NCBI GenBank assembly: GCA_043824495.1
Contig: JBDRSV010000010.1
Coordinates: forward strand, 41,995-105,994
Direction of reading: 5' to 3'
Source: Candidatus Aenigmatarchaeota archaeon
GTDB lineage: Archaea > Aenigmatarchaeota > Aenigmatarchaeia > QMZP01
DNA: 64,000 nt
The position numbers were made by a program, and so were the translations under genes. Position 1 is the first letter of the stretch. Each line of letters begins with the position of its first letter. This document shows, piece by piece, positions 25,590 through 30,949 of this stretch. The notes beneath the pieces are model-generated. The model made no database searches and had not been told where the DNA came from. It saw nothing but the letters and a program-made list of their open reading frames with translations.

Positions 25590-26012
25590 ATGTATGAGCT
25601 AAAAAGAGTTGGCGTAGTATCTGTGGGTAAAATATTTGCTTTTATAGGTTTAATTTTGGGTATAATTAACGCCGTACTAATAGGTATAATATTAGTGGCT
25701 GCGGGAGAAGCTCTCGGTAGTCTTAGTGCATTATCATTGTTAACTGGAGGATCTGATCCAATATCATTATTCTTAGCAATGGGAATGGGAGCTGTTATAG
25801 TAGTGCCTATACTGTACGCTATCTCAGGTTTTATTGGAGGGGTAATAGTAGCATTTTTTTACAATCTTGCTGCCGGTAAAATCGGCGGAATAGAAATGGA
25901 TTTACAAAACGCAGGATCTAATGTACAAAGAGTTCAAAGAGAAGAAAAGTACCAACAGCCTCCACCTCCAGATAGATATCCACAAGATAAGTACCCAAGA
26001 AGATATTACTGA
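25590..26012 (+). CDS. Membrane protein (DUF3566-like)
   Basis: ELKRVGVVSVGK start, two TM helices, FYNLAAGKIGGIEM. Confidence 0.65.
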   Translation: MYELKRVGVVSVGKIFAFIGLILGIINAVLIGIILVAAGEALGSLSALSLLTGGSDPISLFLAMGMGAVIVVPILYAISGFIGGVIVAFFYNLAAGKIGGIEMDLQNAGSNVQRVQREEKYQQPPPPDRYPQDKYPRRYY

Positions 26013-27747
26013 TATTCATCTAGAAGTTCTCTTTCATCTGGTGTTAATTTACTTTCTATTTTCTTTAGTTTTTCTACATCTTCGTGAGAAAGGAAAACAT
26101 TGAGAACATCGCCTTCTATTATTTCTTTACCTATTGTAACTCCTTGCATAGAAACAGCTACTTTGTCTCCCATTTTTACTTTAGAGATATTATCTCCTCT
26201 AAGTTGAAGTTCTTTTATTTCGCCTACAATATCATTTCCTTTTTTGAGTCTATAGGCTGATTTTAGAGTTCCTTTCAAAACTTCAACACCGAAAATAGCG
26301 GGCTTGCTTGCCCTGAAAACATAACCAGGTAGAACTCTTACTCTTCCAGGCCTTGTTATACTTTCTAATATTCTAGCTTCTTTTCTGGCTCTTTCATCCT
26401 TTTTCCACTTTTCATAATCTTCTACGAGCCTGTAAATGACATCGGAATGGAATACAGATATATTGTTGTCTTGGGCCATTTTCAAAATATTAGAATCAAT
26501 TTTGATATTGAAACCAAAAATAACAGGATCTTTCAAAACTCTCATTTCCATTATATCAGATTTTGTGATGTTTCCTACAACAGCTTTTCTTATAGGGACA
26601 TTTTTATCTTTCAGTGTTTTAATCAAAGCCTCTAATCCTCCGAGTGTATCAGTTTTCAGAAGAGTTCCTTCATTCTGTGTTTCAATTTCAACCTCTTCGA
26701 CTTCTGCCCTTAGTTCTTCAATAGCTTGGTCTATATCGGATTCGTTTGCAACAGCCCTCAAAGGTGAACCAGGTATAACGTCTTCTAAATCAGAAGCGGC
26801 TATTTTTATTCCAGCAGCAGCAGATACGGTATCGACATTAACAAAATTACTATTTTTTAATTCTTTCAAAATCTCAGGTTCTAATAAAGCCTTGACTTTG
26901 GTTTTTATTATTTTGTTTCCACCAATAATTATACAGTCTCCTCTTTTGATATCTCCGTCATATAGGATAACATCTATTGTTGTTCCCAAACCACGAAAAT
27001 TTTTTACTTCAAGAACAGTTCCTTTACCTTCTCCATTAGTTAAGATAAGTCCTCTTTTTAGAAATTTCTGGGAAATACCACTTAGTGTCATAAGCAGTTC
27101 AGGAAGTCCTTCTCCGGTGTGAGCGCAAATTGGAACAACAGCTATTTGTTTTGAGAAATCTGATATCCTGTCTATTCTCTCAGCTTCAAATCCCCTAACA
27201 CCCAACTGTCCAATTATTTTATATATTTTTTCTTCTAGAGCATCTTGAACTCTTTCTGATTGACAATTGTAAGTAACAGTAAATGGCTTATCTTTTTGTG
27301 GCATCCAACCAGCAATTCTATCAAGTTTTGTGATGGCTACCATGAAAGGAGTTTTGAATTGTTTTAAGTAATTCAGACTCTCTTCAGTTTGTGGTTGAAA
27401 TCCTTCCATCACATCAATAACAAGAATGGCCAAATCAGCAATAGCTCCGCCTCTTTTTCTAAGAGTTGTAAAAGCTTCATGTCCTGGTGTGTCAACAAAC
27501 AATAAGCCAGGAATGGTTAACTTAATGTTCATCTTCTCCAACAAATTACCAGCAATTTTTTTAATTAGTTCTGTAGGAACTTTAGTTGCTCCTATTGTTT
27601 GTGTGATGGCTCCTGCCTCCCCTTTTACTACAGAGGTTCCCCTAATTTTATCCAGTAAACTGGTTTTACCGTGATCTACGTTTTCGGTTGAGATAATACT
27701 CAATGTCCGACTACGACCACGATAGGTGATCTGAGTTTTTCAATCAT
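26006..27747 (-). CDS. infB: Translation initiation factor aIF5B/IF2, two exons (27747-27705 and 27681-26006), 572 aa after splicing
   Basis: Exon 1 MIEKLRSPIVVVVG plus exon 2 gives the canonical GHVDHGKT; also GGITQ-like GAITQTIG, DTPGHE, TKLD and KTDTLGGLEAL. The spliced length of 1719 nt equals 573 codons. Confidence 0.92.
27682..27704 (-). other. 23-nt bulge-helix-bulge (BHB) micro-intron in infB
   Basis: AUUGAGUAUUAUCUCAACCGAAA. Central helix UCGG/CCGA, 3-nt bulges AC|A and AA|A, intron stem UUGAG/CUCAA, exon-exon stem CGUGGUC/GAUCACG. Confidence 0.85.
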
Positions 27748-29090
27748 ACTCGTTTTAGACTTTTATAAAAATCAAGTTCCTCCTTTCCTTTATTTGTAAA
27801 CGAATAAATTTTTTGTCTATAGTGGTTTTTATCAATTTTAGCTTTTAAATAGTTCTCTTCTTCGAGTCTCGTTAAGAACATTCTTGTGGTTATTTGGGAA
27901 AGCCTTAAAAATTTTGCAGATCCTAAACTTGTATTAAATCCGTTGTTAACAGAATCTAAATATTTGTAAAGATAAACTTTCTTATTATTAAAAATGTTTC
28001 TTACTAATTTATTTTTCCTTTTCTGATGAGTTATGCAACCTAATTTAAGTAATTTTATAAAATTACTTCTATTTGTTATTCTCACTGACCAATATCCCTT
28101 TTTACCCGTAATATAGTACATTTTACTTGTTCTTATTCCTATAATTTTGCATATATTCTTGAAGAATAATGCATTCTCTCTACTTTCTGTAGAAAAATTT
28201 ACTTCTTTATGAGAAACACCAATATCACCTCTTGACAATCCTCTGAAGGTCTCTATTGAAAATTGTTTTGAACTAAGTGTCAAGTTCATACAATATTCCA
28301 TAATGTAATAGAAAACCTCAGCCAACGTAGAGTTATGGATATTAAGAATACACACACCGTGTGATGCAGATACTCTAGAGTTCTTAATTATTTTTATATT
28401 GTCTTTTAATAGTCCAAACTCTGACCAATATTCTTCAAGATTTCGAATCGTATTTTGATCTTTTTCAGGAAATAGTATTTGCACTTTCCATAAATCCTTT
28501 TTTATACCTAAAATAGATTCAGCGGCTTTGACGAACCAAGCTATCTGAGATCCATCTGCATTAGAAAATGAAAATCTATCTAAATGCTTCCCTTTTTTTC
28601 TACTCTTAAAGCCTTCACAAAAATAAGCTCCAAAGAGCTCCAGTAAGCTATAATTCCCTTTTCTAATAGGTATGAGTTTTGGCAATTCAAATGCATTATT
28701 CCCCTTAGAGTAAATCCATAAAAGAAGTCTATTGTTTTCTAATTCAAATTTATGAAGAGGGTATCCTCTGATTGTTTCTCTTGGTATTATATTGAGTAGA
28801 TTTGCATAACCCTCTTTTTTTACGCTGTTTCTCTCTTTTGGAATACTTATTATATTAAAATAGATATTTTGTGGTGTCTTAATATTATTTGCAAGATGAA
28901 TAGGCACTGTAAATCTCACATCTTTTGTTGTTTTTAGCACAGCGGGAAATGTGGCATCTTTAATTTTTATTAGGGCTGGTTGAACATCATTTAATTTAAA
29001 CTGTCCTATTGAAGATTTTTTAGTTACAATAATGTAGCTAGATTGATTATGTCTGCCTTTGCTCTGTTCATAAATTCTTCCCTTTAACAT
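27744..29090 (-). CDS. Free-standing double-motif LAGLIDADG endonuclease-like protein with C-terminal winged helix
   Basis: LFGAYFCEG followed by FSFSNAD; second motif TFRGLSRGDIG followed by VNFSTE; C-terminal MFLTRLEEENYL...YSFTNKG. Its stop overlaps the infB ATG. Confidence 0.7.
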   Translation of the reverse strand: MLKGRIYEQSKGRHNQSSYIIVTKKSSIGQFKLNDVQPALIKIKDATFPAVLKTTKDVRFTVPIHLANNIKTPQNIYFNIISIPKERNSVKKEGYANLLNIIPRETIRGYPLHKFELENNRLLLWIYSKGNNAFELPKLIPIRKGNYSLLELFGAYFCEGFKSRKKGKHLDRFSFSNADGSQIAWFVKAAESILGIKKDLWKVQILFPEKDQNTIRNLEEYWSEFGLLKDNIKIIKNSRVSASHGVCILNIHNSTLAEVFYYIMEYCMNLTLSSKQFSIETFRGLSRGDIGVSHKEVNFSTESRENALFFKNICKIIGIRTSKMYYITGKKGYWSVRITNRSNFIKLLKLGCITHQKRKNKLVRNIFNNKKVYLYKYLDSVNNGFNTSLGSAKFLRLSQITTRMFLTRLEEENYLKAKIDKNHYRQKIYSFTNKGKEELDFYKSLKRV

Positions 29091-29629: not shown

Positions 29630-30484
29630 TTGACTATGGTTATAGCAAATGGTGAGCTGAAGGACAATATAAACATACAACCTACCAGCTCAAGCTATAT
29701 TGATATAGGAACATACAAAAGTTTAGGAAATTCTATTGTTTACTCTACTACACTCACAAGAACAAGAAGAAATTATTACGATTCAAAGAACGAGCTACCA
29801 GAAGGACATAGAATGTCCACGGCAGTAGAAGAACTTGCAATCCAGCTTGGCCTTGAAAGGGCAGGACAAGACCCAAGAAAAGCTGAAGTGCTCAACGATC
29901 TTTTCGGAAGGAAAAACAACGGATGGTATGCATTCCAATGGACAGAAACAGGATTAAGGGTACCTAAAGGATACGATCCAAACAGGACAGAGACAGACGA
30001 ACAAGGAAGAAAGTATTTCCAAAGAATTATTCTGATAGGCGACCAGGAAGTAGGTGAAGTGCTTGTCCCGGAAGGAAGCGGAAGAGCTATTATGGAATGG
30101 GACGAAGTGTTTGGGATACCAAGAGTAACCTCAGACAAGGCCGGAGACATGACGCTCGAAAACCACACAACTCATTTTTACTTTGATGCAAATCCAGGAC
30201 AAGACGATAAAAGCGGCGGATATGATGTATCCGTTGCCCGTGGGAGCGACTGGCATCACGCTGATCACGCTAGGTGCCTGGGCGTCTATGCGGCCTGCGA
30301 GCGTTGGTATGCGTACGTCAATGATGGTGTTCGTCCGGTTCAGGGTTCTCTTCCTGAGATCACACCAGAATTTGTGAGAATTGATCCCGGAATAGTGGAA
30401 GAAGCAAAGGCAAGAACGATAACAATAGACGATGATGCTGCAAACCTGACAGCAAGACAGTTTAAAGAAAAATATAGTGTATAA
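29630..30484 (+). CDS. DGR target (variable) protein with CLec-type variable region
   Basis: Contains the VR at 30231-30335, encoding ...RCLGVYAACERWYAYVNDGVRP. Likely start ATG 29636. Confidence 0.85.
   Translation: MTMVIANGELKDNINIQPTSSSYIDIGTYKSLGNSIVYSTTLTRTRRNYYDSKNELPEGHRMSTAVEELAIQLGLERAGQDPRKAEVLNDLFGRKNNGWYAFQWTETGLRVPKGYDPNRTETDEQGRKYFQRIILIGDQEVGEVLVPEGSGRAIMEWDEVFGIPRVTSDKAGDMTLENHTTHFYFDANPGQDDKSGGYDVSVARGSDWHHADHARCLGVYAACERWYAYVNDGVRPVQGSLPEITPEFVRIDPGIVEEAKARTITIDDDAANLTARQFKEKYSV
30231..30335 (+). repeat. DGR variable repeat (VR)
   Basis: Aligns to 30804-30949 with 13 substitutions, 12 of them at TR adenines; the 3' 17 nt (CAATGATGGTGTTCGTC) are identical. Confidence 0.95.
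30340..30357 (+). other. Hairpin 4 nt downstream of the VR (candidate DGR target-recognition hairpin)
   Basis: TCAGG-GTTCTCTT-CCTGA; positioned like the post-IMH hairpin of the Bordetella BPP-1 DGR. Confidence 0.55.
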
Positions 30485-30803: not shown

Positions 30804-30949
30804 CCGTTGCCCGTAGGAGCAACTGGCATCACGATGATCATAGCGAAGCGCTATCATAAACGATAGGTGCCTGAACGTCAATGCGAACTACGAGCGTTGG
30901 AATGCGAAATTGCTGACAAGCGACGCAAACGGCAATGATGGTGTTCGTC
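30804..30949 (+). ncRNA. DGR template repeat (TR) with two inserts (30841-30860 and 30909-30929)
   Basis: AAC/AAT-rich copy of the VR, immediately upstream of the RT start. Confidence 0.93.

Follow-up and report, generated by a model that had tools for sequence, protein, structure and literature searches.

A predicted tRNA-type micro-intron in the P-loop codons of the translation initiation factor gene aIF5B of an Aenigmatarchaeota genome

How can a translation initiation factor be produced from a gene whose P-loop codons are split by a stop codon and a change of reading frame? This question is raised by aIF5B, a gene whose essentiality is assumed and which is the archaeal orthologue of bacterial IF2 (infB), in a 64,000-nt stretch of archaeal DNA (the window) that is located on contig C10 of a metagenome-assembled genome (MAG; 29 contigs, 1.01 Mb, 80% complete, 35% G+C). 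A first-pass annotation of the window proposed a DPANN host, which agrees with the related genomes, deposited as Candidatus Aenigmatarchaeota MAGs. The analysis described here indicates that positions 27704-27682 most probably represent a bulge-helix-bulge (BHB, tRNA-type) intron in the aIF5B pre-mRNA that would be excised by the tRNA-splicing enzymes (estimated probability about 0.87). The intron is a member of a single family of micro-introns (18-32 nt) found at this exact codon in aIF5B and in its paralogue aIF2-gamma in scattered Aenigmatarchaeota. A BHB intron within a pre-mRNA is a known kind of element, and the novelty lies in one intron family that occupies the same site in two paralogues.

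The gene, the insert and all elements of the fold are located on the minus strand. The gene starts with an ATG at 27747-27745 and continues for 14 more sense codons (MIEKLRSPIVVVVGH) up to a UGA at 27702-27700, and the remainder of the P-loop (VDHGKT) continues in another frame after this stop codon. The interruption consists of a 23-nt insert (27704-27682, AUUGAGUAUUAUCUCAACCGAAA) that holds the in-frame UGA. Deletion of the insert results in GGA C|AC GUA GAU CAC GGU AAA ACC, which encodes GHVDHGKT in frame with both the upstream codons and the 565-codon body of the gene. Exon 1 (27705-27747) comprises the ATG, MIEKLRSPIVVVVG and the first base of the His codon (C27705) and encodes the conserved N-terminal beta-strand and the beginning of the P-loop. 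Exon 2 (26006-27681) contains the remaining AC of the His codon, VDHGKT and what follows of the G domain, as well as domain II, the IF-2 domain and domain IV, and ends with a stop codon at 26008-26006. The predicted junction peptide of the spliced protein is SPIVVVVGHVDHGK and the intron-less DNA sequence of the P-loop is GGACATGTAGATCATGG. The split of the P-loop by a 23-nt insert had been reported in the first-pass annotation, and its sequence, the UGA and the restoration of the frame are as described there.

The long open reading frame (ORF) as read (26006-27703, 565 codons from an internal TTG) begins with ...STENVDHGKT. The exon 2 ORF matches the Pfam families GTP_EFTU (1.8e-28), GTP_EFTU_D2, IF-2 (4.3e-19) and GTP_EFTU_D4 (4.3e-24), a domain set that identifies the gene as aIF5B and bears out its earlier assignment as infB. 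The match to the G domain begins at profile position 11, so that the 565-codon ORF lacks the first strand and the beginning of the P-loop. Exon 2 is 52-62% identical to the aIF5B of relatives, and the predicted spliced N-terminus resembles the pattern M..(I/L)R(S/Q)PI....GHVDHGKT that is found in these relatives. The gene is single-copy in the assembly, where the sole other matches are EF1-alpha and EF2. It had been anticipated that gene callers would report a truncated protein, and the public protein collection indeed contains the gene only as the 565-aa form that starts at the internal TTG.

The insert and its flanking sequences can be folded into a structure that spans positions 27670-27721. 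The central helix (H, 4 bp) is formed by the exonic strand UCGG (27707-27710) and the intronic strand CCGA (27684-27687) and lies between two 3-nt bulges on opposite strands, the 5' bulge ACA (27704-27706) and the 3' bulge AAA (27681-27683), which is the core arrangement of a BHB. On the intron side, H is followed by an inner hairpin (h', 27688-27703) with the stem UUGAG (27703-27699)/CUCAA (27692-27688) and the loop UAUUAU (27698-27693). On the exon side, the structure consists of the closing pair G27711-C27680, a 3x3 internal loop and an exon-exon helix of CGUGGUC (27721-27715) with GAUCACG (27676-27670). The register of this outer helix varies among relatives and it is the weakest part of the structural model. 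A cut after the second nucleotide of each bulge, the rule applied throughout, is predicted between C27705 and A27704 and between A27682 and A27681. The minimum free energy (MFE) of positions 27727-27664 (64 nt, ViennaRNA) is -21.6 kcal/mol (z = -3.7; 0/200 shuffles were equally stable), and the MFE fold recovers helix H with the 5' bulge as well as the inner stem, and places a 2x2 internal loop at the 3' site. A total of 214 BHB shapes of the same strictness, with introns of at most 40 nt, were identified in the 2 x 1.01 Mb of the genome, and the shape alone therefore proves nothing.

A total of 42 intron-less relatives contain an uninterrupted GHVDHGKT, among them a genome of the same genus (G001) that reads GGA CAT GTA GAT CAT GGA, which equals the predicted spliced junction. 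Overall, aIF5B is uninterrupted in nearly all 76 genes of the order. Three genomes of the same family (G051, G054 and G055) carry a 30-nt insert at the identical position within the His codon. A survey of 371 genomes of the phylum with the pattern GGNCA-N(8-45)-CCRRAAAYGTNGAYCAYGG identified 28 genomes with a match (0/371 for the reversed pattern, which served as the control). The carriers are distributed over family f18 (13 out of 23 genomes), the family of the window genome (4 out of 47, own genome counted) and family f21 (4 out of 70), with single cases elsewhere. A BHB with all four H pairs and an inner stem of at least 3 bp was located in 27 of the 28 matching genomes. The introns are 18, 19, 20, 22, 23, 24, 27, 29, 30, 31 or 32 nt long, which covers all three classes modulo 3, and in-frame stop codons are frequent. 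Excision at the same bulge positions results in G|HVDHGKT in all 27 BHB-positive genomes, as well as in 10 JGI metagenome contigs that contain further copies, regardless of intron length. No exact or near-exact copy of the 23-nt intron was found in the metagenome contigs. A scan of a genome collection returned 13 more carrier loci with the same feature set; most of these appear identical to genomes of the phylum survey, and two are filed under other phyla (Micrarchaeota MAG245 and one Hadarchaeota MAG). In total, about 40 related sequences document that the shape is conserved. A chance occurrence of the shape is excluded by this conservation in combination with a P-loop that is restored exactly.

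The gene is broken as read and stems from an 80% complete MAG in 29 contigs, which would be compatible with an insert that is junk within a pseudogene or a sequencing or assembly artefact that is not present in the real genome. However, the 565 codons that follow the insert are fully open and retain their similarity to the orthologues, exon 1 still encodes the conserved N-terminus, and no other aIF5B copy is present in the assembly. Furthermore, same-site inserts with compensatory changes occur in independent MAGs and metagenome contigs from many studies, and a pseudogene or an artefact is regarded as extremely improbable.

The compensatory changes were quantified in an alignment of 29 copies for the nine pairs of H and h'. 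Standard pairs were found in 97.7% of the cells compared with 82.0% in shuffles, and none of 500 shuffles reached 97.7%. The covariation score was 0.51 compared with 0.19 in shuffles (0/500). Both sides have changed in five of the nine pairs, including four of the five inner-stem pairs; for example, pair 3 of the inner stem is G-C in 16, A-U in 12 and C-G in one of the copies. The four pairs of H are formed in all 29 sequences, with a change of pair 2 from C-G to U-A in four of them. Pairing falls to 15-47% if the 3' partners are shifted by 1-3 columns. The AAA of the 3' bulge is invariant in 29/29 copies, although the pattern used for the search included AAA. As a second, independent sign, synonymous sites in the exon half are constrained where the intron is present: 28 of 29 carriers use GGA as the Gly codon compared with 7 of 42 genes without the intron, and the codon that precedes it invariably ends with UC or UU in carriers. 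The suggestion of a BHB pre-mRNA intron is strengthened by the comparative evidence: the same-site inserts in 28 of 371 genomes, the covarying helices, the intron lengths in three frames and the constraint on synonymous sites.

An alternative that involves no RNA cleavage is translational recoding, either by a bypass similar to that of T4 gene 60 or by a frameshift across the insert. The stop codon soon after the break and the stable hairpin that follows it do resemble the take-off site of gene 60. However, no single frameshift suffices for inserts whose lengths fall into all three classes modulo 3 and that contain UGA, UAG or UAA. For a bypass, the sole matching landing codon for the peptidyl-tRNA-His (the CAY of GAY-CAY) would delete Val-Asp-His and ruin the GxxxxGKT motif, and the Val-Asp-His codons show variation at third positions only, which is the pattern of translated codons. 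The conserved features are the two-bulge geometry and the 4-bp helix, neither of which is needed for bypassing. Recoding is accordingly considered very improbable. Further candidates were rejected. Termination-reinitiation at the UUGA overlap (UUG 27703/UGA 27702) was dismissed since the overlap is the conserved 5' end of the intron (A|UUGA) and since, where relatives have introns of 30 nt, this UUG does not share the frame of exon 2. A self-splicing group I or group II intron requires a catalytic core of hundreds of nucleotides compared with the 23 nt of the insert, and Rfam returned no match at E <= 1 within 27400-28000. An intein, which is translated in frame with its host protein and has Cys or Ser at position 1 and His-Asn at its end, is inconsistent with a length that is not a multiple of three and with the in-frame UGA. 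Finally, the insert is not a member of the cbf5 pre-mRNA intron family, as its host is aIF5B; it is the same kind of intron, not that intron lineage.

The BHB intron would be removed in a small number of steps. The transcript would fold such that the exonic UCGG pairs with the intronic CCGA, which places each splice site in a 3-nt bulge beside the 4-bp helix. A splicing endonuclease EndA of the three-unit epsilon2 type, with its broad substrate range, would then cut after the second base of each bulge, and the ligase RtcB would join the exons to give GGA-CAC-GUA-GAU. The intact GHVDHGKT protein would be made only from the spliced mRNA, and the unspliced mRNA would give rise to a 15-residue peptide. 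The sequence, its fold, the restored frame, the conservation, the covariation and the enzymes of the lineage are observed; that cutting and ligation occur, and which enzyme is responsible, we infer.

The distribution of the splicing enzymes is consistent with this pathway. Of 46 genomes of the family, 44 encode EndA (PF01974), and none of the carriers lacks it. In carrier G051, a 392-aa EndA (L076:548-1723) matches the epsilon2 EndA of ARMAN-2 (4FZ2) from end to end (E = 3e-101). The EndA proteins of the family are of the three-unit epsilon2 type with a length of about 400 aa, and many of the genomes contain a second EndA-like gene of about 190 aa. The epsilon2 type had been described only from Micrarchaeota (ARMAN) in 2018 (PMC5829648), and the ARMAN-2 enzyme cuts relaxed motifs (PMC3239211, PMC12397907). 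In the window genome, RtcB was identified on contig C2 (PF01139, 477 bits). The RtcB frame (C2:319-3141) is 1002 aa long, and Pfam aligns two segments of it, separated by about 1.5 kb, to profile positions 1-52 and 49-426, a layout that resembles an intein within the ligase gene. ARAGORN predicted 20 tRNA genes on all 29 contigs, about half of them with introns and several of these at non-canonical sites; two of the predicted tRNAs have odd anticodon loops. The tRNA-Arg(UCU) of the same genome contains a BHB for which cuts after the second bulge base reproduce the intron position and length called by ARAGORN. It is the only clean BHB in this control, and the other calls misfit a single-intron model. 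The genome plainly depends on BHB splicing.

A number of points weigh against a BHB intron in aIF5B. The strict BHB drawing has an energy of -17.9 kcal/mol, which is 3.7 kcal/mol above the MFE. The exon-side helix (h) at the 3' bulge consists of a single G-C pair in the window and is missing in most relatives, where the 3' site sits in a larger loop. A strict hBHBh' motif has at least 2 bp in each of h and h'; here h' contains 5 bp and covaries, and h is one pair that is followed by a 3x3 loop and then 7 bp. The motif fits the relaxed HBh' class and not the strict hBHBh' class, with a textbook core and a weak exon-side helix. The first-pass annotation had called the BHB canonical and exact, which holds for the UCGG/CCGA helix, the bulges and the 5-bp stem but not for the exon side with its single pair and internal loop. 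A single-pair exon-side helix means that cleavage would rely on an EndA with relaxed specificity, and relaxed-substrate activity is known only for the ARMAN-2 homologue (PMC3239211, PMC12397907). EndA itself was not found in the window assembly, neither by profile at E <= 0.001 and E <= 10 nor by tblastn with the loci of six relatives. The assembly is only 80% complete and this is therefore most likely a gap in the assembly and not an absence of the gene. In the conserved neighbourhood in which relatives encode the small EndA, the window genome instead contains a large ORF with repeated beta-propeller-like motifs. The paralogue aIF2-gamma was not found in this 80% complete assembly either. With only 20 tRNA genes and neither EndA nor aIF2-gamma found, either the missing 20% of the genome contains the absent genes or further disrupted genes escape detection. 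With regard to the comparative evidence, the search pattern fixed CCRR and AAA and the locator required pairing, so that the invariance of H and of the bulge is partly due to ascertainment. Only one pattern match failed the pairing locator, and the covariation of the inner stem and the codon bias in the exon are free of this bias. The relatives are not independent samples and hence no p-values are given. Finally, no protein in the spliced form was found in a collection of 5.8 billion proteins, in which the closest entry is 66% identical.

BHB introns in the cbf5 pre-mRNA of Crenarchaeota were reportedly described by Watanabe (2002) and Yoshinari (2006), and Marck and Grosjean (2003) are said to have described the BHB introns of archaeal tRNAs and rRNAs with their hBHBh' and relaxed HBh' motifs. 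Papers up to 2025 list only cbf5 as an archaeal coding sequence with a BHB intron, in addition to the 5'-untranslated region (UTR) of Haloferax HVO_1309 (PMC7714728, PMC5829648, PMC12397907, PMC2738675). No paper in the searched literature pairs aIF5B with a BHB intron. The first-pass annotation had regarded BHB introns in mRNAs as rare, in agreement with a 2020 study that gives only cbf5 and one Haloferax 5'-UTR case (PMC7714728). The cbf5 intron is found in Aeropyrum, Sulfolobales and Desulfurococcales (Yokobori 2009, PMC2738675). Similar to the aIF5B intron, it is a short BHB intron within a coding sequence that has to be removed to restore the frame and that shows a patchy distribution, gained and lost among relatives; it is cut by a broad-specificity tRNA splicing endonuclease, as predicted here. 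In contrast, the cbf5 host gene encodes a pseudouridine synthase and not a translational GTPase such as aIF5B or aIF2-gamma, and its lineage is crenarchaeal with an (alpha-beta)2 EndA, compared with a DPANN lineage (Aenigmatarchaeota) with an epsilon2 EndA. Unlike in cbf5, the aIF5B intron lies in P-loop codons and at the homologous site of two paralogues, and its splicing is predicted from sequence.

The introns of archaeal tRNAs and rRNAs, with their hBHBh' and relaxed HBh' motifs (PMC5829648), share with the aIF5B intron the 4-bp helix, the two 3-nt bulges, the cuts after the second bulge base and the micro-intron size, and they are processed by EndA and RtcB, the enzymes presumed to act here too. 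They differ in that the aIF5B intron resides in an mRNA and the exonic half of its motif has to encode protein as well, which is visible as fixed synonymous codons. The HVO_1309 intron of Haloferax volcanii (PMC7714728) is likewise a case in which EndA acts on an mRNA and not on a tRNA or rRNA; however, it is located in an untranslated leader, interrupts no codons and has been confirmed in vivo and in vitro. Splicing of HAC1/XBP1 by IRE1 and tRNA ligase or RtcB also removes a small non-spliceosomal mRNA intron with sites defined by stem-loops and joined by a tRNA ligase, and no functional protein is made from the unspliced mRNA. In contrast to aIF5B, HAC1/XBP1 splicing uses another endonuclease and another motif and is a proven stress-regulated switch, whereas regulation of aIF5B is speculation.

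The micro-introns are not restricted to aIF5B. Among the 27 copies, five are located at the homologous His codon of aIF2-gamma, a gene of about 400 codons with the N-terminus ...PEVNIG..GH and a Pfam eIF2_C domain. The aIF2-gamma intron of G143 (genus g77) has a GUGA/UCAC inner stem that is also present in the aIF5B introns of G139 and G141 and elsewhere only in a neighbouring genus, and the aIF5B of G143 itself is intact. The aIF2-gamma introns on two metagenome contigs (L118 and L119) have the UUGAG/CUCAA stem of the window intron. A second aIF5B intron site is located 15 nt downstream of the first, splits the Lys codon of GKT behind its first base, and is occupied in G004 (32 nt, locus L032), in G016 (34 nt, L007) and on L119 (21 nt, L119:2860-2885), in the last case 3 kb from the aIF2-gamma intron at the first site. 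The second-site inserts also have BHB geometry with the helix AUGG/CCAU; the bulges are AAA in G004, and the form in G016 is less regular. Furthermore, the aIF5B P-loop of G044 contains a classical intein of about 528 aa (GHVDHGK|CVSPDTL...FVHN|TTLLD; L042, G044:C56:600-4200, minus strand). The intein resembles the BHB intron in that it is a selfish-type insertion in the same conserved stretch that is removed after transcription, although it is in frame, contains an endonuclease domain and is removed at the protein level, whereas the BHB intron contains no ORF and would be removed at the RNA level. With introns at two sites and an intein, the 24 nt that encode GHVDHGKT are a hotspot for three kinds of removable insertion.

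The first-pass annotation had also raised the possibility that the intron links aIF5B synthesis to tRNA splicing, and such a regulatory coupling is pure conjecture. The opposing explanation, which leaves the splicing itself untouched, is that a selfish mobile intron is excised by EndA, has no regulatory role and persists by spreading between P-loop-coding sequences. The distribution of the intron is patchy: it is present in 13 of 23 genomes of one family and in four of 47 of the window family, and carrier and non-carrier genomes stand side by side within the single genera g1, g18 and g77, which speaks for recent gain or loss. A selfish intron would also account for the presence at the same codon of aIF2-gamma in five genomes, for the GUGA/UCAC stem shared between the aIF2-gamma of G143 and the aIF5B of G139 and G141, for the UUGAG/CUCAA stem shared between the window and L118 and L119, and for the second intron site and the intein within the same 24 nt. 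On the other hand, BHB micro-introns without an ORF have no known mechanism of mobility, and the shared stems may be convergent given that the helices are so short. Overall, a selfish mobile intron would explain the patchy distribution and the paralogue copies no less well than a regulatory role, and we lean slightly towards the selfish intron.

A more specific and tentative proposal, which we consider somewhat doubtful, is that the ORF-less BHB micro-introns form a family that is mobile between genes and homes to the P-loop sequence GGN CAY GTN GAY CAY GGN AAR AC of aIF5B and aIF2-gamma, where it competes with the second intron type and with inteins, and that free-standing LAGLIDADG proteins, such as the one whose gene overlaps the aIF5B start codon, might aid or resist it through collaborative homing or target-site immunity. 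If true, this would be the first evidence of tRNA-type introns moving laterally among mRNAs.

A protein of the LAGLIDADG type is encoded directly upstream of aIF5B in the window. The ORF (27744-29090, minus strand, 448 aa) ends with a TGA that overlaps the ATG of aIF5B (ATGA) and encodes a free-standing LAGLIDADG-like double-motif domain and a C-terminal winged helix (Pfam LAGLIDADG_3, 4.8e-4; PadR, 5e-3). Proteins in the Atlas that look alike combine LAGLIDADG_3 and HTH_5 and belong to DPANN and Hadarchaeota. The sole homologue among the fetched loci (L056:840-1432) is located directly upstream of an intron-bearing aIF5B and lacks residues 183-353; one homologue is too few to claim an association of the LAGLIDADG ORF with intron-bearing loci. 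The 3' end of the 448-aa ORF contains TTTTATAAAA (27761-27770, minus strand), 14-23 nt upstream of the aIF5B ATG, which could be an archaeal TATA box that yields a near-leaderless aIF5B transcript.

A scan of the lineage for further BHB inserts had been suggested together with the intron. It was fruitful at the level of the phylum, with the same-site inserts in 28 of 371 genomes, but produced no further case in the window genome itself. The latter was scanned for BHB introns whose excision joins two frames that are each open for 40 codons or more (60 or more in the stricter sets), starting from 136,625 loose candidates. The number of frame-joining excisions equals that of the controls in which the 3' cut was shifted by 1 or 2 nt (7225 compared with 7199 and 7364; strict set, 22 compared with 17 and 27). 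The ten top candidates that were inspected, read by eye, all look like normal junctions of genes, as in the case of an ABC-ATPase-like C-terminus with a new N-terminus behind it. The scan is blind to short first exons such as exon 1 of aIF5B. Elsewhere in the window, a template-like repeat (30804-30949) and a variable-like repeat (30231-30335) are collinear apart from two inserts, about 20 and 21 nt in length, that are present only in the former, and the first of these inserts (30840-30859) is BHB-shaped with an AUGA/UCAU helix, the bulges UCA and AAA and a UAGCG/CGCUA stem.

With aIF5B and aIF2-gamma as the second and third host genes, both of which encode core GTPases of translation initiation, mRNA splicing by EndA and RtcB would be no crenarchaeal oddity. 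Gene callers truncate such genes, and marker-gene sets and completeness estimates for DPANN archaea can be affected. The aIF5B transcript would represent a natural relaxed-BHB mRNA substrate for an epsilon2-type endonuclease, and the idea that the supply of an initiation factor is coupled to splicing capacity is a speculation that the locus raises. Finally, the same intron in two paralogues with shared lineage-specific stems offers a tractable system for the spread of ORF-less BHB introns, a question that is shared with the introns of tRNAs.

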